A stretch of DNA of 64,000 bases from Escherichia coli (GCF_024223415.1 NZ_CP100500.1); one strand, 5' to 3'. Shown: positions 4,748 through 31,647, counted from the stretch's first letter. Program-made: numbers and translations. The notes: generated by a model not told the origin, from the sequence alone.

Positions 4748-4750
4748 GCA

Positions 4751-5314: not shown

Positions 5315-5682
5315 AGCGCGGATTTACCTTGCTGGAAGTGATGCTCGCACTGGCGATTTTTGCGCTGGCTGCCACGGCGGTGTTACAGATTGCCAGCGGT
5401 GCGCTGAGTAATCAGCACGTTCTTGAGGAGAAAACGGTAGCAGGCTGGGTGGCTGAAAACCAGACCGCGCTGCTCTACCTGATGACCCGTGAACAACGGG
5501 CGGTCAGGCATCAGGGCGAGAGCGACATGGCAGGAAACCGCTGGTACTGGCGAACCACACCGCTGAATACAGGTAACGCGCTGCTCCAGGCGGTGGATAT
5601 TGAAGTCAGCCGTCACGAAGACTTTTCGTCGGTAATTCAGTCACGACGCGCCTGGTTTAGCGCCGTGGGAGGCCAACAGTGA
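5311..5682 (+). CDS. gspI: Minor pseudopilin GspI
   Basis: N-terminal KRGFTLLEVMLALAIFALA prepilin motif; 123 aa; overlaps neighbours by 4 nt. Confidence 0.82.
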   Translation: MKRGFTLLEVMLALAIFALAATAVLQIASGALSNQHVLEEKTVAGWVAENQTALLYLMTREQRAVRHQGESDMAGNRWYWRTTPLNTGNALLQAVDIEVSRHEDFSSVIQSRRAWFSAVGGQQ

Positions 5683-8433: not shown

Positions 8434-8434
8434 C

Positions 8435-9077: not shown

Positions 9078-9110
9078 AAAAGCAAAAACCCGCCTTGTGG
9101 GCGGGTTCTT
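9078..9110. terminator. Bidirectional rho-independent terminator hairpin (cccgcc-ttgtg-ggcggg flanked by T-runs on both strands)
   Basis: GC stem 9089-9105 with ttctt downstream on + strand and tttttgctttt downstream on - strand; lies between gspM stop and the tRNA-Phe 3' fragment. Confidence 0.55.
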
Positions 9111-9119
9111 AAGAATTAG

Positions 9120-9139
9120 TGGTGCCCGGACTCGGAATC
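9120..9139 (-). repeat. 20-nt fragment identical to the 3' end of tRNA-Phe (GATTCCGAGTCCGGGCACCA); candidate island attachment-site repeat
   Basis: Reverse complement of tggtgcccggactcggaatc equals the tRNA-Phe acceptor/T-arm 3' end including CCA; upstream tRNA body is absent. Confidence 0.7.
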
Positions 9140-9326
9140 ATATCCACGATTAACATACTGTTTGTTATTGGTTTTGTTGCGATTTCTTGTAAACAGCGCC
9201 CCCACTAAAGCCCCCATAAAAAATCGCTTTGGTTTTGTGAGGGTTATCACGAAAAATCAATGTTAAGTGGAGGGCTTCGTTATGTGTGGAGTTATGACCC
9301 TGGCCCAAAATCAGTGCAGTGCTAAA

Positions 9327-10200
9327 TCAGAGATCTTCGTCTTTCCGGAGACTTCGGATGAATTCAGCCGGAGTCATGTCATTTAATGATGAATGCGTCC
9401 TTTCATGATTGTATTCCCTGCGCCAGCTGTCGAGTTTGTCCTGCGCATCTTCCAGTGACAGGAACCAGTGAATGTTCAGACACTCATCCCGTAGACTGCC
9501 GTTAAATGATTCAATAAACGGGTTATCTGTCGGCTTCCCGGGGCGCGAGAAGTCCATGGTCACTCCGTGTTCATACGCCCATTTATCCAGACTTTTTGAG
9601 ATAAACTCGCTGCCGTTATCTGTCTGAATACGTACCGGCAGGCGCTTACCCGGCACCCGCAACCCTTCCATCACACCGACCACATCCTCGCCTTTCAGCG
9701 ACTTTCCGGCATGGATCGCCAGACACTCCCGACTAAAATTATCGACTACAGTCAGCGCCCGGAAACGCCGTCCGTTAAACAGATTATCCGACACGAAATC
9801 CATATTCCAGCACTGATCGACACCGGTCAGGATGGGACGCTGTTGGCGATGTGCTGCACTGACATGCCTGCACGGACGTTTTCTCCGCAGGTTAAGTCCT
9901 TCCAGACAATAAATCCGGTGTGTTTTCTTGTGGTTAACAGGCCAGCCTTCCTGCCGTAACTGGATATGAATACGCGGGCAACCGTAGCGGATCCGGGTTT
10001 CCGCTATCTCCCTGATGCGCAGGGTTATCGCCCGATCATCTCGCCGACTCTGCCAGTGGTAAACGGTTCTGCTCTGTATCAGCAGTCCACATCCCCGTCG
10101 GACACTGATACGGTAAGCTTCCCGCAGAAAATGTACCGCCTGACGCTTCTGAGCCGGCCTCAGAACTTTTGTTTCAGTACCTCCTGCAACATCTCCTTAT
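9327..10200 (-). pseudogene. IS3-family transposase OrfB (DDE integrase core), disrupted by a frameshift near 9960
   Basis: Manual translation: one frame gives ...ITLRIREIAETRIRYGCPRIHIQ then stops; a second frame resumes LRQEGWPVNHKKTHRIYCLEGLNLRRKRP...MDFVSDNLFNGRRFRALTVVDNFSRE...TDNGSEF...; continuity needs a 1-nt shift. Confidence 0.65.
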
Positions 10201-10426
10201 CCAGACTCAGATCAGCCACCAGTTTCTTCAGCCGCTGATTTTCATCCTCCAGTTGCCGCAGACGCCGCAGTTCCGTCACGCCCAGACCGGCAAATTTCTT
10301 CTTCCAGTTGTAAAAGGTGGCCTCAGAAATACCCATCTTTCTGCAGACTTCCCCGACGCGGGTGCCGGTTTCGGCCTGTTTCAGCGCAAACGCAATCTGT
10401 TCTTCGGTATAACGGGTCTTTTTCAT
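10160..10426 (-). CDS. IS3-family transposase OrfA (HTH, leucine-zipper region)
   Basis: MKKTRYTEEQIAFALKQAETGTRVGEVCRKMGISEATFYNWKKKF... typical IS3-family OrfA. Confidence 0.85.
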   Translation of the reverse strand: MKKTRYTEEQIAFALKQAETGTRVGEVCRKMGISEATFYNWKKKFAGLGVTELRRLRQLEDENQRLKKLVADLSLDKEMLQEVLKQKF

Positions 10427-10554
10427 GGTAATAAGCCTCTCTGTGAGCAGGAAGAAAGACCGGAGACTTCAGTTTAGACTGGTACTGTTTTCAGGGGGGA
10501 GATCAGTTAGGTTCACACATAACGAATTCTAAAAACACCGCCCTAAATTTTCCG

Positions 10555-12786
10555 CTAGTTCTCTACCATCAACCGGGCAAGCTTGGCAAAAATCGAACAC
10601 TTGCTGCTTTCACCGCTCCTGAGCATATCCAGGGTAAAGCTATTGAGATAAACGCCAGTTAACGGGTGGCTAAATACATCTACGGCTTTGCCTTGGGCAT
10701 CCCATATCAGCAGATTTTCCACCAGGTTAGGCCGTGCAATAGTAGGATTTGTAGGCTGGGCATCGCTTACCAGAACAAATACACCATTCTCATGCGGTTG
10801 CAGATAAATATGGTGATGCTTCATCTTTTGCGCTTTGGTCAGCGAGTCGTATTTCGAGCGGCCAGGTGATATCAGATAGGGCAGTACGTTTTGATCCGGT
10901 TTTGCAGAGCGGGTGATGGCGTACCCGTTAAATTTATCCCCTTTACGCTCTGCCAGAGTTTTTTCTTGTTCCTGATAAGCGTATGAATCGACGATATTAA
11001 ATTGCGCCGGGCCAATCAGGCGCGGTACGCGGGAGCTGTTGTAGGTGGTAAGCAGGACATCTGCTGTGTGGTCGTAGAGATAGAAGCTTTTGTCGAATAA
11101 TTTCTTTAATCGTCCCAGAGAGGGGGGATCAACAGACAGATAGTCTAATTTACCTTCAGCGATCCCGGTATCAACCACCCTAAGTTGGCCGTGTTCTATT
11201 TTTAGTTCGACATATCCAAGCAGGGGGAGATAGCTTTTCGTTTTGCGTACTGCATAGGCGGTATAGTGCCCGTCCGCCAAATCTGGTAGTGGGATGTGAT
11301 GCTGATTGAGTAAGCTCTCTTTGAACCATAGCTCGGTTTTTGTTCGGCGAACCTTACTGTTAAGTAAGGTAACTGCTGACTTGAGACGACTGTGAGGCTT
11401 CGTAAGATCGATTTCGTATTGAGTAGGGTTGCTTGTCAATTGTTCATTAATAAAATCAATCGCATCCAACAACTTGTGATCAATATTCATACCCTGTAAG
11501 ACTACGGGCAGAGGTTGCTGATTTAGCCACCCTTGCAAACGATCTAGTTTAAGCTGGGTATAAGTATCCCAATTGAGTTCGGGTTGTTTTCGGGCGTCGG
11601 CAAAGGCCGCATAGAAATCATTGTACTCAACAGATTCATTATCTTGCTGGCGGATGCTGTTGCTCCGCTCTTCATCTACTGCATTGAGTACCAGAATAGA
11701 TGTACTGGCAGGCAGCTCAGAAAAGCCGGTTTGCTGAGAATGTTTAAGCGACGCCAGAGGCCAGAGTTGATACCCGGGGAACTGGATGGCTAATGTGTCA
11801 AAGAAATAAGCTTCTTGCGTGGCGCTAAATTCGACGCCGTTATTAACCACCAACAGCGTATTAGTCAGTTGTTGATCGAGGTCGGTAGCGAACTGATTGA
11901 CCTCGTGGGTGGCCTGAAATGCGATAGGCTGATGCGGGATCTCTAGTTCACTGAGCCGCTCGCAGGCGGCATTCATGACCACGTTATAGGTATAGGCCTG
12001 GCATTCACCATAGCCGCTGCGCTCACGAAAAAAGTCCAGTTTGCTATCCCGGGCATCGAGTTTGCGCCGGGCTTTGAGCCGACGATTATCGATGTTAAAC
12101 CACACGCAGGTATCGTCCAGAGAGAGATGCAATTCATCCTCCGGTTCGACCAGAAATTTTCGTTTGTGCAGGGTAAAGGCGAGTTCGTTATATTCTGATG
12201 CATAAATGTCGAGTTCGAATGCCTCCATCACTCCAGTGCCGCTTTTCTGCGTGACGGGCTGACTCAGGCGAGCGTTGAGATAGAACGTAGAGTTGAAGTA
12301 GGTTGGCGGTACCGAAAAGCGCTCGCTGGCTTGTTCCAGCATTACCATTTTCAAATGCAGACTGAACAATCCCTGAATCAGGCGAGATAAATCATAATTT
12401 TCAGCTGTGAGTCGCTGGCAAAGCGTTTCAATGCGTTCTGCCAAAGTCCGATGCGCTAGGCTGTTCGGTGCAGCAGCAGGCGCCAGGAAAAAAAAGACGT
12501 GATGGTAATTGGGTAAGCAATGCAGCTCATATTTTACTTCCTGTCCGGCCTCAAGCCCAAGCTTCTGCCGCACGCAAGTTTTTACCTCCTGATGAATTCG
12601 CGCATAGTAATCAGCGGATTTTTCTTTTCGCTCTTTAGTAAAGTGCTGAACCATAAAGTCTATCGTATAGATATTAGATACCGGGGCCAATAGACGCTGG
12701 ATTGTTGTCAGCTGATCTTCTTCAAGCTTGATCAAATTGGTACGGGCAATCGGAGTATCCGTCAGCTCATTCAGATTAGGGATCAT
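10555..12786 (-). CDS. Hypothetical 743-aa protein, last gene of the five-gene operon; no recognisable catalytic motif
   Basis: Long uninterrupted ORF; ATG overlaps stop of upstream gene in ATGA arrangement; no Walker, HKD, HNH or methyltransferase motifs seen by eye. Confidence 0.6.
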   Translation of the reverse strand: MIPNLNELTDTPIARTNLIKLEEDQLTTIQRLLAPVSNIYTIDFMVQHFTKERKEKSADYYARIHQEVKTCVRQKLGLEAGQEVKYELHCLPNYHHVFFFLAPAAAPNSLAHRTLAERIETLCQRLTAENYDLSRLIQGLFSLHLKMVMLEQASERFSVPPTYFNSTFYLNARLSQPVTQKSGTGVMEAFELDIYASEYNELAFTLHKRKFLVEPEDELHLSLDDTCVWFNIDNRRLKARRKLDARDSKLDFFRERSGYGECQAYTYNVVMNAACERLSELEIPHQPIAFQATHEVNQFATDLDQQLTNTLLVVNNGVEFSATQEAYFFDTLAIQFPGYQLWPLASLKHSQQTGFSELPASTSILVLNAVDEERSNSIRQQDNESVEYNDFYAAFADARKQPELNWDTYTQLKLDRLQGWLNQQPLPVVLQGMNIDHKLLDAIDFINEQLTSNPTQYEIDLTKPHSRLKSAVTLLNSKVRRTKTELWFKESLLNQHHIPLPDLADGHYTAYAVRKTKSYLPLLGYVELKIEHGQLRVVDTGIAEGKLDYLSVDPPSLGRLKKLFDKSFYLYDHTADVLLTTYNSSRVPRLIGPAQFNIVDSYAYQEQEKTLAERKGDKFNGYAITRSAKPDQNVLPYLISPGRSKYDSLTKAQKMKHHHIYLQPHENGVFVLVSDAQPTNPTIARPNLVENLLIWDAQGKAVDVFSHPLTGVYLNSFTLDMLRSGESSKCSIFAKLARLMVEN

Positions 12787-15700
12787 GATACTTTTCCTTT
12801 AGTCGGCAACTTTTCTACACCCAGCAGGGTTAGTAACATTGGGTTTATATCCAATGTCATGCGCAGTTTCGAGTTTTCCTGAGCGCGTCCGCTCTCTCGA
12901 TTTTTGGGCTGATAATACTGGTAGTCAGTTTGCAACAGGTTGAGGTAGTGGATCGTGTGATCCACATTATCCTGCCACATCAGATTATTAGGGTTCTGGC
13001 TGTAGGCGACGTTCAGATAGATAAATCGAATACGTTCATAACGGCCTGCCAGCGCCGTCTGGAGCTGTTTCTGCCCCTCAGTATCCGCCTTTTGGCTGGC
13101 GATATTACGGATCTGGCGAATCTTGTTGTCGCTTTTCTCAAGCGTTTCTTCTGCCCGCGTCAAATCGTCCAACTGTGTCGCCCAGCGCTTAACGTCGATG
13201 CAGAGCAGGTCGTCGCCCACTTCAATAAAGCGGTCAAAAAACTCATAGACCAGCGGTTCAAGGCGTTCAAACACCTGCTGGTCGGAGAGTGGGGTAACAC
13301 CATAACTTTTTAGCACTTTATCGAAGAGATATTCACCGACATTGCCTTTGAGCAACGGAACTAGCCTGGGGTTGGGTACCCATTTTTTGAATGCCTTTTC
13401 CTGGATGTTGTCACATTCACGAATCAACTCGCCGACCAGGTTGCCGGGGGTAAAATCGACATCGTTTCTATACTGCGGAAAGAGGGTGAGCTCTGGCCGG
13501 TACTCTCTTGCGCCGCCAGCGAAATCCGACAGGGCGGAATAATCTCTGTGGGCAAGTCCATCCGGGCCGCGTTTGTGGCAAAGTAAAATCGTTTGATTCC
13601 CTTGCTGACGATCGATAAACAGAGCGTCGTGAACAGATTGCATTTGTCGATTGGCGGTATACAAGGGATTAGCCTGGAGTTTTGCCAGCCAGCGCTGGGG
13701 ATCGGTAAAGGAGTCAGGATCGCGGAATAAATTACATATCTCGAGATAATCGAGATTGCCAGCGCGTACCTTATTAATCCAGTCGGTTTTAAGGACACGT
13801 TTGTGAATTTCATCGATGCGGCGACCATTCGCGACGATAGCTTGCTCAAACGTCAGTCGCTGTTCCGCATTATTGAATGACTGGCCCTGACTCAGCTTTT
13901 CGCACTCCTCCATGAGTCGGTGGTTAAGCAAAGACATACTTTCTGATACCACCTCGTTACCGCTATCTTCACTAAGAGCGGCGAACTGAAATGCAACATT
14001 ACGGAACACATCGCGGGGTAAAAAGATTTCTGTTTTCAATAGAGTGTCGCGACGCTCGACTCGCCCTACGGCCTGCACGACGACTTTGAATAAGCTCATA
14101 TCATGTTCGGCCATTAACAGGCGATAGTTTTCGCCGTGGGCGAAATTAACGTTGAAATCGGCCAGCTTGTGGACGGTAATATCGTCATCGGCGTAGTGTT
14201 TAAGCACGGTAACGTAGTTAGGTAATGTATTGAGGTTGCCGCTGTTGTCCTTTACTTCGCTGTAAAACGAGGAGTTGATGAGCACTAAGCGCTCAAAATC
14301 GACATCCAGACGTGGTGCATTGATATCATTAATATCGCCGTCATGGTATTTAACAAAGTAGTTGAGGCCGGTACCCGCACTTTTATAACTGCTCATAAAT
14401 ACCAGTACGGTATTGCTGTTCTGGAGATAGGTTTCTTGCCTGATATCTTCGACATTAGCCAGTGGTGAATCGAAAAAGACCAAATGGACGGTGTGACGCC
14501 CTTTGAATGGGGTAAAGGTCAGGATCTGGTCATGTTTCTTACCGTTATCCGTTTTTTCATCGCACCGGGAGTGCATACCGTACTGCTGACGCCAGGTTGT
14601 CTGGTGCGTGCGCCAGGCGCTGATAAAGGCCCGCTTAAACGTCCCTGAAAGTGACAGAATCAGGCTGTTTTTACCCTCCCAGGCGGCAAGCAGTAACGCT
14701 TCCAGTTCCCGCTGGCACTGACGCCGTTTATAGGTATTTTTCAGGTCGTATTCCAGCGGTTTCTTCAGCGCGTCGAAAAAGTTGTCATACGTCCTGCGAT
14801 AGATTTCACAATTTTGGTAGATATCGGTCAATTTTAACTGCTTATCATCGAACACCCTGAAGTCTACGTTGCGGATACTGGCCCTCAACCCGCGTAATGC
14901 CTTAAGCGTATCGATATCTGCCTTTTCGCGTTCAACGACCCGGTAGCCAAGGTCGCGGCTATAGTGCGCCAGGAAGTGACGATTGAAGTTACCGTTTTTG
15001 GTGTGGCTAAAACCGCTGGTGGCGCTAAGCCCAATTACTTTATTGTGCGTGCCGGTTAATAAACGCAGCAGCATGGCTTCAGGCAACTCTTGTACCAGAT
15101 CCATCTCGAACGCCAGAATAATTGTGCGCTCGGCTCCCCTGTTCACGTAATTGAGTTCAGCTATCGGCGTCATCGTGAATACGGTTTTGGGTTGCAGGTA
15201 AGTGTAGAAATGATCAATCAACAAGTTTTTATCGGTGGTGCGATCGAAGATATGTCGCACCACGCCGGCTACGTTATTGGCTGCGTCAACAAACTGGCCC
15301 AAAGGCGTATTCTGGCTGCTGGAGTTGTCCTGGCCACCATTCTTTACCCAGCGCTTAAAGTGCCGGTTGGTGATTTCAGAACAGGCGGCGAGGATGACGG
15401 AGACCAACTGGAACAGATCGTGCAGAGTGGGGTTGGTGTCATTGGCATCATTTTCGACTTCGTAATACAGTTCGGTGCGCGTTATGTCGCCTTCGCTGTT
15501 GCGCATGCGAATGCGTTTCAGCCCTTCTTCATTGACGTACATTTTGGGGTTAAAGCTGAATACGTTGCGGGTGATTGAGATGATGCGTTCGGCGGCGTCG
15601 CCGTTGACTTCAAATGCCCCTAACTGGTCACGAAACATCTCCAGGATCGATCCCAGCCTTGTACCGGGGGATAGTTCGCACTTTTCCGCCAGTAAATTGC

Positions 15701-17498
15701 GCAGAGTAGTGATGAATTTGACCATCTCTTGCTCAAAGGTCGTTTGCGCTTCTTTGGGCTTGTTTCGGCGTTCTAAGCTGAGTACCGCGTTGTGAATACG
15801 TCCTGCGACGGAAATAACGTGCGCCAGGTTATTTTCCTGTGTGATTAGCTTTACATGGCATGTTTCTTCAAGGCGAGTGTAGGCTTCATGTAGTTCATCA
15901 ATGATCACCGTAAAACGAATATTTTTCTGGCGAAAAGGACAATCTGGATTGCGTCTGAAGTGTTCGTCGCGAAGATAGGTAACCTGCCCGGTATGACCGG
16001 CTGCCGCAACGGTGCTAATCTGTGGATCTTTGGGAGTCAGCTTACCGCCAATCAGCAAGTCGAAACCTACGGACTCAAAACGCACACCTTCGCCTCGCTG
16101 ACGAGGCGCCAGTCGGTAAGTTGATGTGTCGAACTTATTCGTGGTCATTAATAGCACTGACGGGCGGTACTGGCAAACTTCGAAAGGCAATACCTGTTTG
16201 ATAAGCTCGAAATAGACTTCGTGTACGCTTATCTTAGGTTCAAGCTTTCCTGGTTTTCGTGCTGTCTCCGCGTTTTGCATTCGCTCTTGCCGCGCCTGGA
16301 GCCCGCGACGAATGTACTCTTTAATGGAAGCTTTTTCACTATCTGGTCCAAATAGTAATTTACAGGCTGACTCAATCGTATTGCGGATACTGTGACGGCA
16401 GTTTTTTAGCTGTTCTTCGAGAATTTCTCTTTCGTAGTTGGTATCCTGAGAACCGTATGTTGTCAGCTTTTTTAACTGCTCTTCACAGCGATCAATTTGT
16501 AAGACATGATAATTGAGCGAACGAATAGCGCCGCCGATATATTTGCTGCCTTTCGCCCCTTCGTACCACTGAATATAGCTGTCGCGGTTTTTCAGACCAG
16601 AGGCCCAGTCCATAAAGTCGAGGTCGGCAACATCCTTACGGGAGAGAACGCAAATGAACTCGCCGCTAGCGGCCAGAATTTTCTCTTTCTGACTGCTGTC
16701 CAGGTCGATTTGTGATTTTTGCGGTGACATGAATAGCAGGTTGGTAAAGCCACCTTCAGGAAACAGATCGTCTGACTTTTGGGTTTTGGCGAAGCGCTCC
16801 AGATATTCGACATACCCTTGGATCACGCCATAGCTTTTGCCGAACCCCGTGCCGTCGGAACTGAAGATGACCTCAGCGCCATCACGTTCATGCACGTGGT
16901 AAAGTTGAGAGACTTGGGCGCGACAGGCGTTAATCTCTTTAATCAGCGTTATGTCAGGAATTTGCCTAGAGATGAGATCTTGCAGATTATTATTGATATT
17001 TTTCTCTCCAACACGCTCACACTTGCGGTAACTATTGATGGTTATTTGGCCGCTGTCGATCAGAATCTTTTCCACCTGTATGGGGGCAAGATGCAAGGCT
17101 GTCGCGATTTCATTGATAGTATTGGACAGTGGTTCGTGTGGATTGCTAATCGTGAAGTGGTTTAGTGCTGCCGCAACGGTATCTGGATGCAATGCTTTTC
17201 TGAGGGTGGGAAAGGTGAGGCTGTAATCGTATAGCGCCAAATCATTGCTTATCAGGCAGCGAAACAGTTGTTTAGTGGGATCGCCACCAGGACGGCTGGC
17301 AAATCCCAAGATTTTTGCCTGTTCGAGGCGATAAAGCAATGCTGCGGCATCGCGGTCAGGTGAGTCAAATGCATCGTGGAGCTGCTGGCTAAATGGCATT
17401 GTGGCATTCAGCCGGTTATGGCTGACCAGCGCGGAAAAGAGCTGACGCACCAAGGTTAGCAGCTTACAATCTTCCTCTATAGTCCAGCTTTTTCTCAT
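12783..17498 (-). CDS. Large SF2-type helicase-like ATPase (~1571 aa from preferred start; ORF track start 17534) with unusually long inter-motif insertions
   Basis: Walker A DGTGFGKSYG, Walker B IIDELHE, motif III LSATSG, motif VI QAVGRVERR spread over ~930 aa; strong SD (AAGGGGAAGAAGA) before ATG at 17498, 11 nt after upstream stop. Confidence 0.6.
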   Translation of the reverse strand: MRKSWTIEEDCKLLTLVRQLFSALVSHNRLNATMPFSQQLHDAFDSPDRDAAALLYRLEQAKILGFASRPGGDPTKQLFRCLISNDLALYDYSLTFPTLRKALHPDTVAAALNHFTISNPHEPLSNTINEIATALHLAPIQVEKILIDSGQITINSYRKCERVGEKNINNNLQDLISRQIPDITLIKEINACRAQVSQLYHVHERDGAEVIFSSDGTGFGKSYGVIQGYVEYLERFAKTQKSDDLFPEGGFTNLLFMSPQKSQIDLDSSQKEKILAASGEFICVLSRKDVADLDFMDWASGLKNRDSYIQWYEGAKGSKYIGGAIRSLNYHVLQIDRCEEQLKKLTTYGSQDTNYEREILEEQLKNCRHSIRNTIESACKLLFGPDSEKASIKEYIRRGLQARQERMQNAETARKPGKLEPKISVHEVYFELIKQVLPFEVCQYRPSVLLMTTNKFDTSTYRLAPRQRGEGVRFESVGFDLLIGGKLTPKDPQISTVAAAGHTGQVTYLRDEHFRRNPDCPFRQKNIRFTVIIDELHEAYTRLEETCHVKLITQENNLAHVISVAGRIHNAVLSLERRNKPKEAQTTFEQEMVKFITTLRNLLAEKCELSPGTRLGSILEMFRDQLGAFEVNGDAAERIISITRNVFSFNPKMYVNEEGLKRIRMRNSEGDITRTELYYEVENDANDTNPTLHDLFQLVSVILAACSEITNRHFKRWVKNGGQDNSSSQNTPLGQFVDAANNVAGVVRHIFDRTTDKNLLIDHFYTYLQPKTVFTMTPIAELNYVNRGAERTIILAFEMDLVQELPEAMLLRLLTGTHNKVIGLSATSGFSHTKNGNFNRHFLAHYSRDLGYRVVEREKADIDTLKALRGLRASIRNVDFRVFDDKQLKLTDIYQNCEIYRRTYDNFFDALKKPLEYDLKNTYKRRQCQRELEALLLAAWEGKNSLILSLSGTFKRAFISAWRTHQTTWRQQYGMHSRCDEKTDNGKKHDQILTFTPFKGRHTVHLVFFDSPLANVEDIRQETYLQNSNTVLVFMSSYKSAGTGLNYFVKYHDGDINDINAPRLDVDFERLVLINSSFYSEVKDNSGNLNTLPNYVTVLKHYADDDITVHKLADFNVNFAHGENYRLLMAEHDMSLFKVVVQAVGRVERRDTLLKTEIFLPRDVFRNVAFQFAALSEDSGNEVVSESMSLLNHRLMEECEKLSQGQSFNNAEQRLTFEQAIVANGRRIDEIHKRVLKTDWINKVRAGNLDYLEICNLFRDPDSFTDPQRWLAKLQANPLYTANRQMQSVHDALFIDRQQGNQTILLCHKRGPDGLAHRDYSALSDFAGGAREYRPELTLFPQYRNDVDFTPGNLVGELIRECDNIQEKAFKKWVPNPRLVPLLKGNVGEYLFDKVLKSYGVTPLSDQQVFERLEPLVYEFFDRFIEVGDDLLCIDVKRWATQLDDLTRAEETLEKSDNKIRQIRNIASQKADTEGQKQLQTALAGRYERIRFIYLNVAYSQNPNNLMWQDNVDHTIHYLNLLQTDYQYYQPKNRESGRAQENSKLRMTLDINPMLLTLLGVEKLPTKGKVS

Positions 17499-17509
17499 TC
17501 TTCTTCCCC

Positions 17510-21021: not shown

Positions 21022-21024
21022 AAA

Positions 21025-23352: not shown

Positions 23353-23535
23353 TCCTTGCCCTTAATCGCTGATAACGCTTCCCGGCATTGTTCTACGATA
23401 GGCAAAGGCGGTAAGCATAAAACTGGAAGAGAGATCGTAAAATGATACCGCGAATGGGCTAGAGTACAAGCATAAAAACCCTATTATTCAAAAGGATTAT
23501 GTCATATGGCTGGGGGAGCAATTGGCAGGACCAGG

Positions 23536-24603
23536 TTATACCTCTGAATCACGCATAAAACGATTGATTTCATCTTGCGCATGACGAAGACGATCGGCAA
23601 TGTCAGCAAATCTGTCAGGCTGATGAAAGAACATTCCCCCTTCCACCGCCGTTTGATGATCCCCGGCGATCGCTGCGAACCGTTCAGCATCGTCAGGCAA
23701 CAGTTGCAGGTTTCCGACAATCACCTGAGTAAAATCCACACCCGGCACAGACCAGCGACGTTGCTTCATCTCGACCACATTGCGCATGGCTTCCAGCGTT
23801 TCATAGGGGCTGGCAAAATGATTACTCAGCAGACAATCCACATCATACCAATGGCGTGCCAGTCGGGCCGGATTTGGCGCTTTGGTTTGCGTGCAGAACT
23901 GGTGCAGCGCCGTCAGCTTTTCCCAAAGAATATAACCGGTGTCATAAGCGTTTACGGTCGCGGTGGGTAACTGGAGTGTATCCATGCCTGCGATCCCGGA
24001 CAGATAGCTTACAACAGGCATCAGATCGGTTGGCTTGCCACGATTTCGTCCGCCAAATTCCAGCAGAATATGATCGCGCTGATAGGCCATACTGTCTTCT
24101 TTCACCCGTGGGAAATAGATATCGACTTTTTCGCCACCACTGTCGGGTTCCATTTTTGCTTCAAGGCCCGGAATTTCATAAGTCTGAAAGCGTTGGTTTA
24201 ACCGTTCTGCCAGCGCGTTTGTCCATTCTGTTAAGCGCTCTTGCTGCTGCTCTCTGAACCGGCGATTCTGGCTGTTATTTAGCGTGCTTTGCTCCCATGC
24301 CTGCTGTTCTTCCTCTTCTGAGTGGCCTGCCAGATCGGCCCAGTGAACAGAAAGATCGATATCTTCAGAAAAACGCTCAATCACGTTCCAGCATTTGCTT
24401 AACGCCGTTCCACCTTTAAACGCGACAGATAAACCTCCCAGCAGCTCCTCATTAAAAAGTAACCGAAGGATCTCCGTTACCCAGAGATCCTTTTCCAGAA
24501 AGCTGGCTCCCAGCCCGGAGGGATGCTGCTGCGCCGCGTAAGAGAGGATTTCCTGAAGCTCGCGACGTTGTGATGCGCTCCGGTAGTAATCAAAAATGTC
24601 CAT
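23536..24603 (-). CDS. AbiEii-family nucleotidyltransferase toxin (ORF track start 24642; ATG at 24603 overlaps antitoxin stop)
   Basis: FKGGTALSKCWNVIERFSEDIDLSV motif characteristic of AbiEii/DUF1814 nucleotidyltransferases; ATGA overlap with upstream gene. Confidence 0.78.
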   Translation of the reverse strand: MDIFDYYRSASQRRELQEILSYAAQQHPSGLGASFLEKDLWVTEILRLLFNEELLGGLSVAFKGGTALSKCWNVIERFSEDIDLSVHWADLAGHSEEEEQQAWEQSTLNNSQNRRFREQQQERLTEWTNALAERLNQRFQTYEIPGLEAKMEPDSGGEKVDIYFPRVKEDSMAYQRDHILLEFGGRNRGKPTDLMPVVSYLSGIAGMDTLQLPTATVNAYDTGYILWEKLTALHQFCTQTKAPNPARLARHWYDVDCLLSNHFASPYETLEAMRNVVEMKQRRWSVPGVDFTQVIVGNLQLLPDDAERFAAIAGDHQTAVEGGMFFHQPDRFADIADRLRHAQDEINRFMRDSEV

Positions 24604-25262
24604 CAGAGCGCCTTTTGCAACGTTATCAGCTGCGAGCGCCACGCGTGAAGCGCAGGCTCATTCATCAACTTTCCGGCAATCTGCCGTGCTTTAGCGGACG
24701 GGATGCTCAGCCGATGAAAAGCATTCTTCAGCGTTTCCAATGGGGTATGTTGCTGATCCAGACTCAGCAAACCGCGCATCAGCTCTCCTTCAGGCCGGTT
24801 CAGCCAACGTAACCGACTTGCTGATTTATGCTGGATCCGTACCCGCTCATTGCCGACGCGGAATTCTCGCGTAGGGCCGTTTGACCAGTAGATGCGTTTA
24901 ACTGGCGCCTGCGTTTGCAGCCCCAGCCGGTAAGCGGCTTCCAGCCCCTGAAGGGTGATTTTGTAACCACGCTCTTTTGCCCATGCGGCGGCAACGGCAT
25001 TGGCGCTGGCAACAACGTTAACAGAGGGGATGTTTTTCAACGGCTTTGGCCGGGAGTAGAAACCGCGTTCAACCCGGACCAGCAGGCCTTCTTTGACCAG
25101 ACGGCTCATTGCCTGTTGTACCGACGCACGGCTTCCCAGCGAGTAAAACCCGCTGATGGAAAAGGGGATGCCACGCTTCATGCGGTGAACCCGCTGGCGG
25201 GCCAGAGCGGCAACAGACATTGATTCTCCTGTACTGACGTTTTCATTGATATGTATTTTCAT
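24603..25262 (-). CDS. AbiEi-like antitoxin / transcriptional regulator (type IV TA)
   Basis: 219 aa immediately upstream of and overlapping AbiEii; N-terminal wHTH-like region ...SRLVKEGLLVRVERGFYSRP. Confidence 0.65.
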   Translation of the reverse strand: MKIHINENVSTGESMSVAALARQRVHRMKRGIPFSISGFYSLGSRASVQQAMSRLVKEGLLVRVERGFYSRPKPLKNIPSVNVVASANAVAAAWAKERGYKITLQGLEAAYRLGLQTQAPVKRIYWSNGPTREFRVGNERVRIQHKSASRLRWLNRPEGELMRGLLSLDQQHTPLETLKNAFHRLSIPSAKARQIAGKLMNEPALHAWRSQLITLQKAL

Positions 25263-25418
25263 TATATCCCTTGTGTAGCAAGGAGTCTAACCTAAAAAAT
25301 GTCAGTAATATTCATTCTATGACAATGTTTAAAATGGCAGATATCAGTGAGGTAGCTTGCTGTAGGAAATTCCGACGATAAAATACCCACATACAGCAGG
25401 CGGTGATAAGGATATAGC

Positions 25419-27614
25419 ATGAGCATTCTCTCCATCCACGGCGTTCGCAGTTATCAGGGCGAAAGGCCAGTGGAGTTCGACTTGAGTAAGTATGTCACTC
25501 TTATCTATGGACAAAACGGCTCAGGAAAATCAACCGTTTCTGGTTACTTTTATAAGCATGGTCGTCCAGATTACAGCCAGTGCAGCCTGCGACCTCCACT
25601 GGATATGAACTACCTGGTGTTTAATCAGGAGTATGTAGACGATATTTTCAGCCAACCTTCTCAGCCGGGCATTTTCACTTTAAATAGTGAAAATGCAGAA
25701 ATTAAAACTGAAATAGATGCTCTGGAAGCGGAGAGTAAAGTTTTGTTTGCCCGGCGTGATGCTTTGGACGTGCAAAAACGCGACGTTGAGGGCATGGAAG
25801 AAAGTATTAAAAATGGCTCCGCAAAACAGATTTATAGTTCTACCGCAGAAATCAGAAAAACAGATTTATGGGATTTGATGTCTGGAACTAAACAGACCGA
25901 CAAACTTTTTCAGACCATCCTTGAACACACTGAAGTCGAAGATACTTCGACGCAGGAATTAACCGAAGAACTACACCGACTTGAAGCCAGTAAAGGCAAC
26001 CCTTACGCTTTGCTCGAAGCATTGCCAGCATCCCCTTTGAATGACAATGATATTGCGCTATTGATGCAACCTCTTATTCCAGCAGGTGATAGCCGTCTTG
26101 CTGCCGCAATTAACCAATTGGGCAACATTGACTGGGTGAGGAATGGACAGCAGTGGCTGAGTGATGACATTTGCCCATTTTGTCAAACGCCGATAGATGC
26201 CCGGCAACTTCAACAGGAAATCACTGCCCTTTTTGATACCTCATGGGAAGCTGCGATGGACCAGTTGCGGGAACTTCAGGCGCGATATCAATTCTGGCAC
26301 GATAAACCCGAACATATGCGGCAGTTAATAAAAACGTGTCCGTTAGTTGATCAGGAACATCCTGTTTATCTCTATCTACTTGAACTGGAGCAGGCGTATC
26401 AAAGAAATAAATTGCATATCGATGAGAAATTGACATCACCCTCTGCGTCGATTGCTGTTGAGGATCTTTCTGCTCTGGCTGGCAATGTCTCTGTGCAGAT
26501 AGCCAGTATTAATACAATAATAAGCGAACATAACCGAAAGGCTGAAAATTATCAGACTGAACGGGTTAGACTGAAACAGAGACTACTCAGTCATATCCGA
26601 AAACTGGCTACCGATACGATAATTAACCATGATGAACAACTAGCAGAACTTGCTGAAAAATTGGCAAAATTAACGGTGTCTCGGGATGAAATTACGGCCC
26701 AGCTTGATACGCTGAACGCAATTATTCGCGGTAAATCCAGCCTGATCGTCAATACGCAGGAAACGATTGAACGTATTAATCACAGCTTGGATAGCCTTGG
26801 AATCACTGGATTCCGCATTGCTCCCTATGACGATCGGGATGATTATCGTCTGGTGAGGGAAGGTGAGAACAGCGATACGCCTGTTTTTAGTAGTCTGAGT
26901 GAAGGGGAAAAGACGCTGATTGCTTTTCTCTATTTTCTGGAGACTTGCACAGGGAGAAAAAGTCGTGATGACAATGACCAACGAAAACGTTTAATTGTCA
27001 TTGATGATCCTATATCCAGCCTGTCGCAAAACTATGTTTTTGAAATAGCATCGTTGATCCAGCATCAGGTTATACGTGCCAGAATTGGTGAGAAAGTGAT
27101 TATTCTGACGCACAGCCTGTTTTTCTTTCAGGAGTTACTGCTTTCTGCGGAACGGAAGAAAAGGGCAGCGGGTTCTTGCCCACCAGAATGGACGCTTTAT
27201 CGGGTATCCAAATCCTTACATAGTTCTGCTTCCCTTGTTTCCGAAAAAGAATTACTGAACGACTATCAGGCACTCTGGTATGTCTTACGCCACGCCCAAA
27301 AAGATGACATTGCCAGTGTGGTGATCCCAAATACGATGCGGCAAATCCTTGAATACTATTTTGGTTTTTCGGGGAAAAGTGAGACGCTTCACCGGGCGCT
27401 TGAAACACTGGCGAGCGGGCCTGAAGGTGAACCTGGTTTCCGTATATTTGCTCGTTATCTAAATCGACATTCTCACCAGGATGCCCGCAATATCTCTCTT
27501 CATGAGGGGGCTTCGGTTGAACGCTATCTTACCTGGTTTAAGAAAGTATTCGAGGCGGCAAAGGATGAAGAGCATTACACATCAATGATGGAAAAGACGA
27601 CACAAACGACCTGA
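25419..27614 (+). CDS. ABC-type (SMC/RecF-like) ATPase, candidate RloC/PrrC-like anticodon-nuclease family defence protein
   Basis: Walker A GQNGSGKST at N-terminus, Walker B/D-loop LIVIDDPISSLS and H-loop ILTHS ~500 aa later, CPFC (CxxC) in the intervening predicted coiled coil, ~170-aa C-terminal domain. Confidence 0.45.
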   Translation: MSILSIHGVRSYQGERPVEFDLSKYVTLIYGQNGSGKSTVSGYFYKHGRPDYSQCSLRPPLDMNYLVFNQEYVDDIFSQPSQPGIFTLNSENAEIKTEIDALEAESKVLFARRDALDVQKRDVEGMEESIKNGSAKQIYSSTAEIRKTDLWDLMSGTKQTDKLFQTILEHTEVEDTSTQELTEELHRLEASKGNPYALLEALPASPLNDNDIALLMQPLIPAGDSRLAAAINQLGNIDWVRNGQQWLSDDICPFCQTPIDARQLQQEITALFDTSWEAAMDQLRELQARYQFWHDKPEHMRQLIKTCPLVDQEHPVYLYLLELEQAYQRNKLHIDEKLTSPSASIAVEDLSALAGNVSVQIASINTIISEHNRKAENYQTERVRLKQRLLSHIRKLATDTIINHDEQLAELAEKLAKLTVSRDEITAQLDTLNAIIRGKSSLIVNTQETIERINHSLDSLGITGFRIAPYDDRDDYRLVREGENSDTPVFSSLSEGEKTLIAFLYFLETCTGRKSRDDNDQRKRLIVIDDPISSLSQNYVFEIASLIQHQVIRARIGEKVIILTHSLFFFQELLLSAERKKRAAGSCPPEWTLYRVSKSLHSSASLVSEKELLNDYQALWYVLRHAQKDDIASVVIPNTMRQILEYYFGFSGKSETLHRALETLASGPEGEPGFRIFARYLNRHSHQDARNISLHEGASVERYLTWFKKVFEAAKDEEHYTSMMEKTTQTT

Positions 27615-29132
27615 TTAACAACAGAAGAGGACCATCACCCCGGGATTAACCGTTAGCAGTTCGGCAAAGAGCGCATGTGCTGGCACACGTGCTCCCAGCG
27701 ACCAAAACGGAAACGCAGATACTGGTGAACCAGCACAGTTTTCTGTTTCATACCGGGCTCCTTTCTTTCGACGCCGACAAGCTGTCGGCGAGCCCCGTAC
27801 ACCTCGTACGAGCGTGACTATCGTGTAGAGGCTAAGGATCCCGGGGGATGGCTTCCGCTATCGTAGGCGATTTCATTTGATGATTCAATCTTTGCTTTGG
27901 ATAACAATTAATTGAGATGGTCGTATTTTAGTATTAGCACTGTATGTCTTAGCTATAGTGCTGCTGAAATGACCAATTCGGGAACCGTGATGGTTTCCTG
28001 GAAACTCTCTTGCTTATTTTACGATGCTGGCCGATTATCACAAAACGTTGCTTAAACGCTGATTGGATATGGTGCTTTGTGGCAGTCATTCGCTTGTCTG
28101 ACGTTGCCATGGCTTACATTTGATGTAGCCAATGTAGAAGCCGCTTGGTGAATTGTTCTATGACATGGTCTACTACTTCGTTGTGGAAAATGAAGATGCG
28201 GTACCGGGTATGTACCATTGATGGTGAGAGGCTTATCGACGAATGGACCGTACGATATTGCTTGGCTGGAAAGGTGTGTGAAGCATTGTAGATTTACATT
28301 CACAAAATCGCGAGAAAATCTACAAACAACTCTATTTCCAGAAAAATGAGTTTCCCCTTTCTGCGCCAGAAATAAAGGCGTAATCTCCCTCCTGCACTAT
28401 GTTGTCGTGGACAACTCCCTTGCTTCATGGTCTGCAAGAAGCCCCTGATTTATCAGGATGACCAGCCCTTTCTACCGGTACGACCTCCGCAATACCGGAA
28501 CGCGAAAGCGTTTGAGGCTAAGAGTACATACACATGAACGGCTCCATCGTCATCGCTTAACGGCAACAGCCTTCACCGGCTGAACGGCCTCTCTTTGCCG
28601 GAATTTTCCTGGCCCACTTATACCCTGCTGATAACCAGCGCCTTTTTACATGACGGGCTGCGGCCTGCATTGCCGAAGGCTTTGCTGCCGCGTGACCGTC
28701 ATCCTGCACCAGAGTGTTAATTTTCAGACCCTGCGCCAGACCAGGGCGTCAGTCGCTCACGCGCAGTGAGAGACTGACGCCCGCAGAAATTTCCATCTGC
28801 ACCAGTCATATCAACTGTTCCAGCCACAGGCGAGCTTCTGACGTCGCTTTTCAGCATTTATCTCAACCATTCATTCACAAAAGGAGAACATGAGCCAGTA
28901 CCGGAGGAGGACCACCAGGACGGTCCGGGGGATGACCAGCTCACGCTGGCGGCTGCTCTGAGAGCACAACCGATACCCCGCAAAACCTCAACAGCCGTCG
29001 CCCCGGCGCTCAGGTACTGCTCGCAGCCCCGACAAAAATCAGGGGCTATCGGCCTACGCGCCGGGGAAAGCTGTATCCGTTGTTTGTTGTGGTTTTGTGA
29101 AAATCAGGAGCGAGAGAAGAGGAAAACGTAAA

Positions 29133-30014
29133 ATGGGTATGCTGGAAAGAGAGATGAAAAACCTGGCGCGGCAGGCTGGCGGGTCGCACAAGACTGTCCA
29201 TGACCGTATCGCCATGGCAGGACGTTTCTGCGAACGCCTGATGGAACTGAACGTTCAGATACGCTATGTCCACCATTTAAAGGCGAAGCATATTGAGGCG
29301 TATATTCAGATGCGGCTGGCGCAGGGGATTCAGAAAAATACGCTGCATAACGAAACGGCGGCTATCCGTAAAATCCTGACGCAGGCCGGGCGCGAAAAGC
29401 TGGCGCAGAGTGAACGGATATCGAATAAATCGCTGGGGCTGGCTGGCGTATCCCGCAATGGTACGCGGAAAGCCATCACGCCGGAATATTATCAACAGAT
29501 GGCAGAGGCTGCCCGGCTGAAAGATGCGGGGCTGGCGGCGGCGCTGGAACTGACGCGGCTGATGGGGCTACGCTCTCAGGAGGCAGTACGCTGTTCCGGT
29601 TCGCTGAAAACCTGGCGCGAAGCACTGGAGAAAGGTGATACCCGGCTAACCGTGGTACTCGGTACCAAAGGTGGACGGCCCCGTGACACGATTATTCAGG
29701 ATACTGGCGCAGTTAAACAGGCGCTGGATAAGGCCATCGTGGTGGCAGAACGGCGCAACGGCAGGCTGATTGATGCGGCGAGCCTTAAACAGGCAATGAA
29801 ATACTGGCGCAACCAGACTTTGCGTATGGGGCTGACGGGCAAATACTCCCCGCACTCACTGCGCTACGCCTGGGCGCAGGACGATATCTGCCGGTATCTG
29901 GCGCAGGGGTTCAGCGAAAAAGAAGCGCTGGCGATGGTGGCAATGGACCTAGGGCATGGCGACGGGCGTGGTCGCTGGGTGAAGCAGGTGTATGCACGGA
30001 ATGATGAAGCGTGA
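29133..30014 (+). CDS. Small tyrosine recombinase-like protein (ORF track start 29097 is GTG)
   Basis: C-terminal catalytic-like residues: ...GLRSQE..., TVVLGTKGGRPRD, HSLRYAWAQ (HxLR), MDLGHGDGRGRWVKQVYAR (LGH...Y); SD-like gaggaaaa upstream of ATG 29133. Confidence 0.5.
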   Translation: MGMLEREMKNLARQAGGSHKTVHDRIAMAGRFCERLMELNVQIRYVHHLKAKHIEAYIQMRLAQGIQKNTLHNETAAIRKILTQAGREKLAQSERISNKSLGLAGVSRNGTRKAITPEYYQQMAEAARLKDAGLAAALELTRLMGLRSQEAVRCSGSLKTWREALEKGDTRLTVVLGTKGGRPRDTIIQDTGAVKQALDKAIVVAERRNGRLIDAASLKQAMKYWRNQTLRMGLTGKYSPHSLRYAWAQDDICRYLAQGFSEKEALAMVAMDLGHGDGRGRWVKQVYARNDEA

Positions 30015-30195
30015 TTTTTTGCTGGCGCAGCGAAAGGAAAAAGGCCAAAGGGTAAAGGTGGGTTAAGGGTAACAGCTCCTTACCGGAAAGGGCCAAAGGG
30101 TTGGGACTGGCGCAGATCGACGTCTATCCACGGATATCTGGCGCAAATAAAAAGCAGATCCCTGATGCAGTGGATCTGCTTTCCGGCATTGTCCG

Positions 30196-31502
30196 TTAGC
30201 TGGCGCAGGCCGCCTGAATCTGCCTGTCATACCGATACGGCGGGATAAATTTCTGCCGACAGGCGTCGAGATAATCCGACCACCACTGCATCATCTGTGT
30301 GCGCTCGTCGAGGTGCTCCGCCTTGTGGATATACGCGGCACGAACGTGATTACGCTCCTGATGGCTCATTTGTCGCTCCACGGCGTCTTTTGACCAGCGC
30401 CCGGACTCGATCAGCGCACTACAGGCCATCGTGCGGAAACCGTGACCGCAAACATCTGCCTGTGTGTTGTAGCCCATAACCCGCAGTGCTTTGTTGATGG
30501 TGTTTTCGCTCATCGGCTTACGCGGATCGTGGTCGCCGGGAAACAGTAACTCACTACTGCCGGACAACAGTTTTAACTGTTTGAGTATTGTCACCGCCTG
30601 CGCTGACAACGGCACCAGATGCTGCATCTTCATCTTTGCGCCGCGATTTGAATAACGCACGCCCGGAATCGGCTCCCGCTCCGCCGGGATGGTCCACATT
30701 GCGCCATCCAGATTGATCTCCGTCCAGCGGGCAAAACGTAGCTCGCTGGAACGGATAAAGATCAGCAGATTAAGCTGTACCGCCAGACGGGTTAACAGCC
30801 TGCCGGAATAGCCTTCAATACGCTCCAGCATCTCCGGTATTTTCTCCAGCGGCAGGGCGGGGTAGTGGTTTTTGGGCGGCGGTGCGATAGCCCCGGTCAG
30901 ATCGTTCGCCGGATTGCTGTCGATTATCCCCTCCTGCACCGCGTAACGCATGATTGCCGTGGTGCGCTGCTGAATCCGTGCAGCGGTCTCCAGCGTACCT
31001 TTTCGTTCCGCCACCCGCAGCGGGATCAGCAGATCGGCAGTTTTCAAATCAGAGACCGGAATTTGCCGATCAGTGGAAAAACATGCAGCTCCAGCGAGCG
31101 CAGGACTTTGGCGGCATGGGCTTCATTCCAGCGGATATTGCCCGCTACCCACTTACGGGCGATATCTTCAAAGGTGTTGCCGCTTTTACGTGCAAACTTC
31201 TCCTGCTGTTTTTTCACGCCGGGATCGCTGCCTGCGCTCAATACCGAGCGGGCATCCTCGCGCAGCTTGCGGGCATTTGCCAGAGAAACGGCCGGGTAAG
31301 CACCAAACGCCAGCTTCTTCTCTTTACCGCCGAAGCGGTACTTGAGGTGCCAGAGTTTAGATCCGTTGGGCTTTATCAGCAGGTACAGACCCTGCGCATC
31401 GCTGAGTTTCCAGGATTTATCAAGCGGCTTTGCATTACGGATGGCGGTATCGGTGAGGGACATAGTGGGGCTCCATAGTTTATCGAACCGACGGGCCCCC
31501 AA
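30196..31502 (-). pseudogene. P4-type tyrosine integrase split by a frameshift near 31045-31060
   Basis: N-terminal ORF (31044..31502) ...LKYRFGGKEKKLAFGAYPAVSLANARKLR...VFPLIGK; C-terminal ORF (30196..31047) ...ADLLIPLRVAERKGTLETAARIQQR...HGFRTMACSALIESG...; the two pieces are in different frames. Confidence 0.8.
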
Positions 31503-31625
31503 TTAAGCCCCCAAAAACTATGGATGTCAAAAAATCTGGCAGTACCTGTTGGTACTCCAGACTCTTTGTAACTAACTGATTTTTTGATGTTTCAGGACTC
31601 ATAGAGACGCCATGAAACTAAATAG

Positions 31626-31647
31626 TGGTGCCGGACTCGGAATCGAA
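31626..31647 (-). repeat. 22-nt fragment matching the tRNA-Phe 3' end with one base deleted; second copy of the attachment-site repeat
   Basis: Reverse complement TTCGATTCCGAGTCCGG-CACCA; same orientation as the copy at 9120..9139; ~125 nt beyond the integrase start. Confidence 0.65.

Follow-up and report, generated by a model that had tools for sequence, protein, structure and literature searches.

Two short fragments of a tRNA-Phe gene lie about 22.5 kb apart beside the T2SS operon in the 64,000-nt stretch of Escherichia coli DNA analysed here (GCF_024223415.1 NZ_CP100500.1; the window), raising the question of whether the DNA between them entered as a discrete element and what became of the tRNA gene. 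The first-pass annotation had reported a 20-nt and a 22-nt match to the 3' end of tRNA-Phe in the same orientation, and sequence matching together with an alignment to K-12 pheV reproduced both exactly (Table 1). We searched the full 64 kb with ARAGORN and found no tRNA gene, in agreement with the earlier statement that the fragments have no tRNA body upstream, and there is no further copy of the tRNA-Phe 3' end in the window besides those at 9120 and 31626. Each repeat is preceded by TAG (9117-9119 and 31623-31625), the 3 nt by which the repeat runs past the tRNA at pheV; with it, the distal repeat amounts to 23 bp at pheV. The window and K-12 are identical from yghD through the terminator to the 20 nt, after which K-12 continues into the tRNA body and the window diverges. 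The hairpin that had been read as the native tRNA terminator is real and is pheV's own, and it still adjoins yghD/gspM in the window. K-12 MG1655, in which yghD, the terminator and pheV are contiguous, provides the unoccupied site that the first-pass annotation had proposed as a check, and its flank is collinear up to the 20 nt.

Table 1. Coordinates of the features of the two islands and their borders, counted from the first nucleotide of the window.
Feature	Position	Strand	Description or basis
pheV native rho-independent terminator	9083-9111	-	Terminator scan; identical to K-12 yghD-pheV intergenic region
Distal direct repeat, island 1	9120-9139	+	TGGTGCCCGGACTCGGAATC; last 20 nt of tRNA-Phe, reverse complement, perfect
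IS3-family element	9295-10505	-	Alignment with IS-free variants; RefSeq annotation
apsB	10555-12786	-	743 aa; predicted Argonaute-like partner of ApsAB antiplasmid system
apsA	12783-17498	-	1571 aa; predicted helicase-nuclease of ApsAB system
sngC (Shango)	17510-19708	-	PADLOC full-length, 1.2e-273
sngB (Shango)	19705-21021	-	PADLOC full-length, 4.1e-187
sngA (Shango)	21025-23352	-	PADLOC full-length, 4.6e-97
abiEii	23536-24603	-	PADLOC AbiEii, 2.4e-193
abiEi	24603-25220	-	PADLOC AbiEi, 5.8e-46
Variable cargo slot	25266-28294	.	Breakpoints from blastn
PDC-S06/AAA_13 (RloC/PrrC-like) ATPase gene, in variable slot	25419-27614	+	PADLOC; Pfam AAA_13, 8.9e-104
EFASI RNA motif, Rfam RF02957	28890-29023	+	112.7 bits against gathering threshold 51.2, E = 5e-23, full-length model
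Tyrosine recombinase, intact, 293 aa	29133-30014	+	Pfam Phage_int_SAM_2 (4.4e-34) and Integrase_1 (2.7e-58)
P4-type integrase pseudogene, island 1	30196-31463	-	Translations; DNA alignment with intact R32_14_1F ortholog
Proximal repeat	31626-31647	+	TGGTGCCGGACTCGGAATCGAA; last 23 nt of tRNA-Phe minus one C, reverse complement
Second island, distal part	31648-64000	.	GI-pheV: CP4-44-like 'yee' module, PTS and transketolase genes, IS elements

We compared the interval between the repeats (island 1) with a set of 5,426 complete E. coli genomes, in which the best match across the 31.6-kb junction was 94.5%. Island 1 is the sole occupant beside intact pheV-yqgA-speC in KV7, where ARAGORN confirmed pheV and the proximal repeat is the intact tRNA gene itself. 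This single-island state, with tRNA-Phe at the island end, was found in nine genomes in all (KV7 and, by annotation, eight more). The island is followed by a CP4-like GI-pheV, as in the window, in eight genomes and by an SPI-7-type ICE in three. The order in EC1515 is island 1, attR, a CP4-like/BREX island, an intact integrase, pheV and yqgA, with pheV ~59.6 kb from yghD, and NCTC9112 carries island 1, a 49-nt pheV remnant and an SPI-7-type ICE. These site states, and foremost the EC1515 array, bear out the tandem integration that had been proposed from the window. A 93% variant of the island is present at pheU in DETEC-S792, between cadC and dicD, and shares with the window both the 20-nt repeat (1 mismatch) and the island terminus (ATATCCACGATTAACAT...); repeat and terminus are likewise found at pheV in R32_14_1F. 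The same element at a second copy of the target gene marks the integration as site-specific. With its flanking repeats, a P4-family integrase gene, an empty site in K-12 and a second target at pheU, the interval 9120-31647 is a tRNA-integrated genomic island of ~21.3 kb without the later IS3 (a 22.5-kb block with it). The GC content of the island is 44-53%, a mild difference from ~56% in the gsp operon, and since this is near the E. coli average, the island would not stand out by composition alone. From the window to EC1515 the island has diverged about as far as its flank (~0.7%), suggesting that the present distribution may reflect vertical descent or flanking homologous recombination more than repeated integration.

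The P4-type integrase pseudogene has the orientation of pheV and adjoins the tRNA-proximal repeat. We located its lesion to a single 1-nt deletion near 31057-31059, where the window has GG (+ strand) and relatives have GGG. The R32_14_1F ortholog is intact (419 aa) and shows the P4 architecture of Arm-DNA-bind_3, Phage_int_M and Phage_integrase domains (Pfam); it shares 61% amino acid identity with the pheV-adjacent integrase of EC1515. The 1-nt deletion is common to the window and KV7, and the copy at pheU carries a 40-bp deletion of its own. The integrase is frameshifted according to RefSeq in all pheV copies whose annotation was read (NCTC9112, EC1515 and KV7). At the other end of the island, the IS3-family element entered secondarily, as a simple insertion, into the hairpin of the terminator behind apsB and is flanked by a GTTA target duplication (9291-9294 and 10506-10509); its junction is common to 19 genomes, and it contains a match to the Rfam family isrN (10025-10161).

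The gene list that the first-pass annotation had given for the interval agrees with the RefSeq annotation and PADLOC, and what it called a five-gene operon resolves into Shango and ApsAB, two published defence systems that adjoin each other. The 17510-23352 segment (- strand) is predicted to be Shango (SngABC), with a TerB-N protein, an ATPase and a helicase encoded in one operon. The 1571-aa and 743-aa proteins had no match in Pfam, PADLOC or NCBIfam, and we identified them as ApsA and ApsB through the literature and not through an HMM library. The ApsB protein agrees with CNR36C9 ApsB at every residue of the N-terminal part that is published (385/385) and contains Y409-x3-K413 ... QG, and the ApsA protein matches the published part of CNR36C9 ApsA at 382/385 residues, with GFGKS218, DELH534, SAT825, QAVGRVER1142 and DVK1435 corresponding to the reported ApsA motifs at an offset of at most 2 residues. 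The SF2 helicase motifs and C-terminal PD-(D/E)XK of the one protein, the MID-like Y-x3-K...QG...K of the other and the adjacency of the genes identify the pair, at the level of prediction, as ApsAB. The abiEii and abiEi genes overlap by the boundary base 24603 and form an AbiE toxin-antitoxin/abortive-infection pair, AbiEi being the antitoxin/regulator and AbiEii the nucleotidyltransferase toxin. The variable slot, occupied in the window by the ATPase gene, holds an Old-family nuclease, an Ash-family gene and an HTH repressor in R32_14_1F (RefSeq, PHROGs) and an Old-family nuclease and an HTH-domain gene in DETEC-S792 (RefSeq); it is this slot, with other contents in the window, that carries the regulator genes of both variants.

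A second recombinase gene, of the Integrase_1 family, lies downstream of an EFASI RNA motif; a scan with Rfam (E <= 1) for a STAXI motif upstream of EFASI found none. The two form a module of ~28328-30014 that is intact in the window, unlike the P4-type integrase. It recurs at thrW and aspV with 92-94% nucleotide identity, occupying the end nearest the tRNA in islands that otherwise have nothing in common with this one, and it is also present in the pheU variant of island 1. It is conceivable, and in our view improbable, that the module is a portable second recombination system that resolves or stabilises tandem arrays or keeps 'dead' islands mobile, and not a passive passenger. A search for an excisionase gene was negative: in the R32_14_1F variant the small genes have matches in transcription-regulator families alone (PHROGs), and the window has no recognisable candidate.

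The right-hand repeat differs from the left in its affiliation. It is, letter for letter, the canonical and commonest GI-pheV attR, TTCGATTCCGAGTCCGG-CACCA (reverse complement), listed in Table 1 of Nhu et al. 2024 (PMC11537424). In H22, which is without island 1, the same C-deleted repeat accompanies the CP4-like module. It is therefore as much the end-mark of the younger island as the border of the older one. The earlier claim that two copies of the tRNA-Phe 3' end bound island 1 thus stands in full for the left copy, while the right copy is a border but equally the attR of a younger GI-pheV. The DNA to the right has the distal organization of a canonical GI-pheV, in that the attR is followed by yee-type genes. 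It is also collinear with the selC island of APEC E19035 from 31778 onward; we rejected a selC island displaced to pheV, as its last 130 bp and its attR have the pheV form and no such repeat is present at the selC locus. The integrase of the second island and pheV would lie beyond the window, which ends inside this island, and in EC1515 an intact integrase and pheV close the corresponding island. From such relatives we infer that pheV has probably been displaced rightward out of the window.

Taken together, island 1 is very probably an integrative defence island that entered the 3' end of pheV and was later pushed away from the tRNA by a second island. Integration would have occurred by site-specific recombination, presumably catalysed by the island's own P4-family tyrosine integrase, and would have duplicated the 3'-terminal 20 nt of the tRNA, with the copy at 9120-9139 staying beside the pheV terminator. 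In this lineage the integrase would then have lost one base and the IS3 would have landed behind apsB. A common GI-pheV with a CP4-44-like 'yee' module would later have integrated into the regenerated pheV, shifting the tRNA rightward beyond the end of the window and leaving an imperfect 23-bp attR at 31626-31647 directly against the integrase of the old island. Island 1 would now be a fixed passenger carrying ApsAB for plasmid elimination and Shango, AbiE and the PDC-S06/RloC-like ATPase for phage defence. Both the order of these events and the role of the P4-type enzyme as the original integrase are what we infer from the arrangement.

The simplest alternative is that the short matches are chance occurrences or remnants unrelated to integration and that the interval is not a discrete element. 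The repeats are merely 20-22 nt and one is imperfect, but the 20-mer (up to 3 mismatches) occurs once in the window against 0.00 expected from shuffles, and the 15-mer core (up to 2 mismatches) occurs solely at the two repeat sites against 0.12 expected, which counts against the possibility, raised in the first-pass annotation, that the matches are common chance motifs. With the left copy continuing the K-12 flank base for base, and the interval present or absent as a unit and recurring at pheU with the same ends, chance is ruled out as the origin of the repeats and the whole reading is practically impossible. The segment from 9120 to pheV could instead be a composite GI-pheV that arrived whole, with the 31626 copy as an internal scar. 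We find this improbable: GI-pheV is modular and highly variable, large blocks of it move by homologous recombination (PMC11537424), and the divergence of flank and island is alike between the window and EC1515, yet island 1 occurs alone at an intact pheV (nine genomes) and with an SPI-7-type ICE as its partner (three genomes), and the CP4-like module with the same attR exists without island 1. The array appears to have been built in two steps, although the lineage of this strain may have received it ready-made, as one block, by recombination.

Two further alternatives concern the order and the present state of the array. If the GI-pheV had been resident before island 1, the latter would have entered its distal attR and not the tRNA gene; with 22 of the 23 target nucleotides retained, this attR could act as a secondary site, and the position of the missing C fits either order. 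We judge the reversed order very improbable, however, because the same inactivated integrase recurs in the pheV copies examined and the same IS3 junction in 19 genomes, while the dead-integrase copy is found beside intact pheV, GI-pheV and ICE; in that state island 1 could not have integrated repeatedly into different contexts. Continued mobility of island 1 seems doubtful. It would require the neighbouring GI-pheV integrase or the Integrase_1-family recombinase to act in trans on the three sites, excising island 1, island 2 or both. The three similarly oriented tRNA-Phe-derived sites share 19-22 nt, both P4-type integrases (61% identical) target tRNA-Phe, and the second recombinase gene is intact; against this, the window variant has no recognisable excisionase gene, and at 61% identity a common arm-site specificity is questionable. 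Early entry of island 1 into pheV, followed by a GI-pheV, remains our preferred reading.

Tandem accretion at pheV and this family of islands are both already published, making the locus an ordinary, described kind of E. coli island, and the result matters little beyond correct annotation: two islands stacked one against the other, and not a single one, occupy the DNA beside this strain's T2SS operon. The locus can serve as a clean worked example of stepwise pheV accretion, with empty, single, tandem-with-island and tandem-with-ICE states and a copy at pheU. A near-identical ApsAB allele eliminates ColE1-type plasmids, so the strain may be a poor host for some plasmids, which would be relevant to cloning and to the carriage of resistance plasmids.

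Tandem integration at one tRNA gene takes place when a newcomer enters the regenerated tRNA and leaves a partial copy between the elements, as exemplified by the SPI-7-family ICEs at pheU/pheV. NCTC9112 shows this pattern exactly, with its 49-nt repeat to the right of island 1; in the window, by contrast, a CP4-like GI-pheV, which is non-conjugative and has a 23-bp attR, takes the part of the newcomer. Island 1 also resembles P4-like satellites in its P4-family integrase, its tRNA 3'-end target, its defence cargo and its exchangeable slot, and an Ash-like gene is present in the R32_14_1F variant as well. We rejected identity with such a satellite on gene content: the annotation of the three island variants lists neither a primase (alpha) nor sid, delta, psu or cos-linked genes, and the HMM searches of their genes gave none of the primase, sid, delta or psu genes. 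The closest likeness in cargo is to the ApsAB islands of Zongo et al. 2024 (PMC11096173), with apsA at 99.2% and apsB at 100% over the published 385 residues; the apsAB alleles of CNR36C9 (ST219) were shown to eliminate a ColE1 plasmid (PMC11096173). The prototype apsAB island of ST38 is at a tRNA-Leu gene and is without Shango or AbiE, whereas island 1 is at tRNA-Phe; the legend to Fig. 8b of that paper, for its part, mentions island families that combine apsAB with SngABC and AbiEi/AbiEii, the insertion tRNA being marked (PMC11096173).

In site and layout island 1 is like GI-pheV (PMC11537424), which uses the same site and has a P4-type integrase beside the tRNA and a pheV 3'-end repeat at the far border. 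It differs in having its own divergent integrase (61% amino acid identity, R32_14_1F ortholog against EC1515), a 20-nt repeat without the deletion, defence genes in place of virulence modules and a position distal to the canonical GI-pheV. As 98% of intP4 genes show >94% nucleotide conservation (PMC11537424) and the integrase comparison here gave 61% amino acid identity, we rejected island 1 as a canonical GI-pheV (intP4.1-4.5). Nhu et al. 2024 likewise described separately acquired DNA beyond an attR, the LEE in strain 12009 (PMC11537424).

Both tRNA-Phe 3'-end repeats reported by the first-pass annotation were located at their proposed positions and in the same orientation, and each is the reverse complement of the E. 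coli tRNA-Phe 3' end. Neither pattern has a further copy in the window and shuffled sequence yields essentially none, so that chance is ruled out and the repeats are real. ARAGORN found no tRNA in the whole 64-kb window, in agreement with the claim that the repeats lack an adjoining tRNA body. The window covers the E. coli pheV locus: its alignment with K-12 MG1655 is base-for-base identical from yghD through the terminator and the 20-nt repeat, past which K-12 runs on as the body of pheV and the window diverges. The native tRNA 3' flank was thus correctly said to remain beside gspM. The T2SS-beta operon gspD-gspM is complete in the window, with only yghD, yghE and yghF remnants in K-12.

Features of the pheV locus (window coordinates unless a compared locus of another genome, L008, L012 or L013, is named)
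Feature	Coordinates	Strand	Remarks
T2SS-beta genes gspD to yghD/gspM	1-8971		
Terminator beside yghD	9083-9111	-	
Left (distal) repeat	9120-9139	+	TGGTGCCCGGACTCGGAATC
IS3 element	9295-10505		GTTA duplication on both sides; inside hairpin behind apsB
Swap slot	25266-28294		PDC-S06/AAA_13 ATPase in window; both flanks conserved
EFASI/Integrase_1 module (~1.7 kb)	28328-30014; L008 12001-13695; L012 7001-8725; L013 7001-8735		
EFASI RNA	28890-29023		Rfam, full-length
P4-type integrase pseudogene	30196-31463	-	Co-oriented with pheV; adjoins proximal repeat
Right (proximal) repeat	31626-31647	+	TGGTGCCGGACTCGGAATCGAA

Four states of the site were found across 5,426 complete E. coli genomes, a set without the window's own genome. 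K-12 provides the empty, unoccupied state (yghD-terminator-pheV). KV7 carries the defence island of window 9120-31647 (island 1) singly, at 99.95% identity over the part compared, with the same left repeat on one side and an intact pheV, then yqgA-speC, on the other; RefSeq annotates tRNA-Phe at the end of island 1 in nine genomes, KV7 included. A tandem with a CP4-like island is present in eight genomes that match across the junction, as in the window, and the order in EC1515 is island 1, C-deleted repeat, CP4-like module with BREX, intact integrase, pheV and yqgA. The tandem partner in NCTC9112 is a SPI-7-type ICE, in the order island 1, 49-nt pheV remnant and ICE genes, and two UCPROB strains were placed in this state from their match pattern. 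The NCTC9112 ICE (locus L001 31626-50000) has dnaB-PI, ParB, STY4528-family and topoisomerase III genes; it integrated at the same tRNA, and the 49-nt repeat on the right-hand side of island 1 is what it left behind. A rightward displacement of the intact tRNA had been predicted, and this holds in relatives (yghD to pheV is ~59.6 kb in EC1515), the window strain's own pheV lying outside the window.

DETEC-S792 carries a 93%-identical variant of island 1 at pheU, between cadC and dicD, with a border (TGGTGCCCAGACTCGGAATC) that adjoins pheU's own terminator and with the same island terminus (ATATCCACGATTAACAT...). Another variant, with an intact integrase, is at pheV in R32_14_1F. The site states and these two variants show that the interval 9120-31647 is one element targeting tRNA-Phe genes. 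The proposal of an island bounded by tRNA-Phe repeats is borne out by the empty, single and tandem states and by the pheU variant.

The commonest attR of GI-pheV has been published as TTCGATTCCGAGTCCGG-CACCA (Table 1, Nhu et al. 2024, PMC11537424), and its reverse complement is exactly the right repeat of the window. The repeat minus one C is present in the window, EC1515 and H22, and H22 has the CP4-like module without island 1; in KV7 the tRNA itself forms the repeat, which accounts for its CCC at this point. The attR identity and the H22 copy show that the right repeat is the canonical end-mark of the younger right-hand island, and it also serves the older island as its proximal border. The tandem integration suggested from the CP4-like module is supported by the EC1515 array and by this attR. 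The right-hand island (window 31778-63477) also aligns collinearly, at 87-99% identity, with a selC/yicL island of APEC E19035 (locus L006 4208-34882), pheV-type sequence being confined to the terminal 130 bp and the attR; one island body therefore stands behind different tRNA genes. In H22 (locus L005 2930-3030), a near-copy of the pheV terminator precedes the canonical attR, and to its left a kps capsule cluster and an IS110 fragment take the place of yghD, so that the capsule region separates the T2SS operon from the old tRNA flank.

An integrase adjacent to and co-oriented with the tRNA is the classical arrangement. The P4-type integrase of island 1 was confirmed as frameshifted: translation gave two frames with a single shift, and alignment with relatives showed that one nucleotide is missing from a C/G run around 31057-31059. 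In R32_14_1F the orthologous gene is intact and encodes Arm-DNA-bind_3, Phage_int_M and Phage_integrase domains. RefSeq calls the gene frameshifted in NCTC9112, EC1515 and KV7; the 1-nt deletion is common to the window and KV7, and the pheU copy carries a different deletion, of 40 bp. The IS3 junction beside yghD is common to nineteen genomes. The shared lesions imply that island 1 had already become immobile in the common ancestor of the copies that share them, so that the differing right-hand neighbours must have reached pheV later. We infer the order of events to be island 1 first and its right-hand partners later. One base was lost from a CCC/GGG run three times at this locus, in attR (31632-31633), the R32_14_1F distal repeat (locus L011 653-671) and the integrase, probably by homopolymer slippage. 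Within the IS3 element, the Rfam isrN family (Hfq-binding sRNA) scores above gathering at 10025-10161, on the strand opposite the transposase.

PADLOC identified SngA, SngB and SngC (Shango), AbiEi, AbiEii and a PDC-S06 ATPase. The ATPase, described earlier as 'RloC-like', matches Pfam AAA_13 at full length and has a C-terminus resembling PrrC, which fits that description. The two proteins encoded downstream of sngC (1571 and 743 aa) gave no matches in Pfam, PADLOC or NCBIfam; they are the ApsA and ApsB proteins described by Zongo et al. 2024 (PMC11096173). The ApsA helicase/nuclease motifs and the ApsB Y-x3-K413 motif are at the published positions, and over the first 385 residues ApsA and ApsB are identical at 382/385 and 385/385 positions to the CNR36C9 alleles, which eliminate a ColE1 plasmid (PMC11096173). 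Given these identifications, the supposed five-gene operon consists of two adjoining defence systems, Shango and ApsAB. Other genomes carry apsAB alone (window 10557-17657) or Shango and AbiE alone (window 17515-25259), each at ~92.8% identity. The apsAB-only matches run on into sngC, covering ~147 bp of its 3' end, which hints that these islands might derive by deletion from the Shango-apsAB arrangement. In both R32_14_1F and DETEC-S792 the swap slot holds an Old-family nuclease, accompanied in the former by an Ash-like gene and an HTH repressor and in the latter by an HTH-domain gene.

The sole loose thread of the locus is the EFASI/Integrase_1 module, in which an intact gene for a 293-aa Phage_int_SAM_2 + Integrase_1 recombinase lies directly downstream of the EFASI RNA. 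EFASI is associated with integrase genes and its function is given as unknown (Rfam description quoted in PMC12370729). The module occurs in >360 other E. coli genomes at 92-94% nucleotide identity; in the three contexts opened it sits at the tRNA-proximal end of otherwise unrelated islands, at thrW with dnd/dpt cargo and at aspV with T6SS cargo. The recombinase gene is intact in the window, A34 and DETEC-S792, and frameshifted in Ecol_316, E01 and R32_14_1F.

pheV is a well-studied integration hotspot, and island 1 shows the terminal tRNA repeats, the tRNA-adjacent integrase gene, the empty site in K-12 and the second tRNA-Phe location typical of a P4-integrase tRNA island. Its identity as a P4 satellite was rejected on gene content. 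Island 1 is distinct from canonical GI-pheV because of its divergent integrase (61% identity between the R32_14_1F ortholog and the pheV-adjacent integrase of EC1515). For GI-pheV, a 23-bp attR, the modular 'yee' module and, past an attR, DNA of independent acquisition have been described (PMC11537424), and the legend of Fig. 8b in PMC11096173 describes island families with apsAB, SngABC and AbiE at tRNA genes, the CNR36C9 island included. The observation and interpretation of the first-pass annotation were correct; all components are of already published kinds, and the locus is a textbook tandem accretion at pheV, in which a canonical GI-pheV stands next to an older, immobilised ApsAB/Shango/AbiE defence island.
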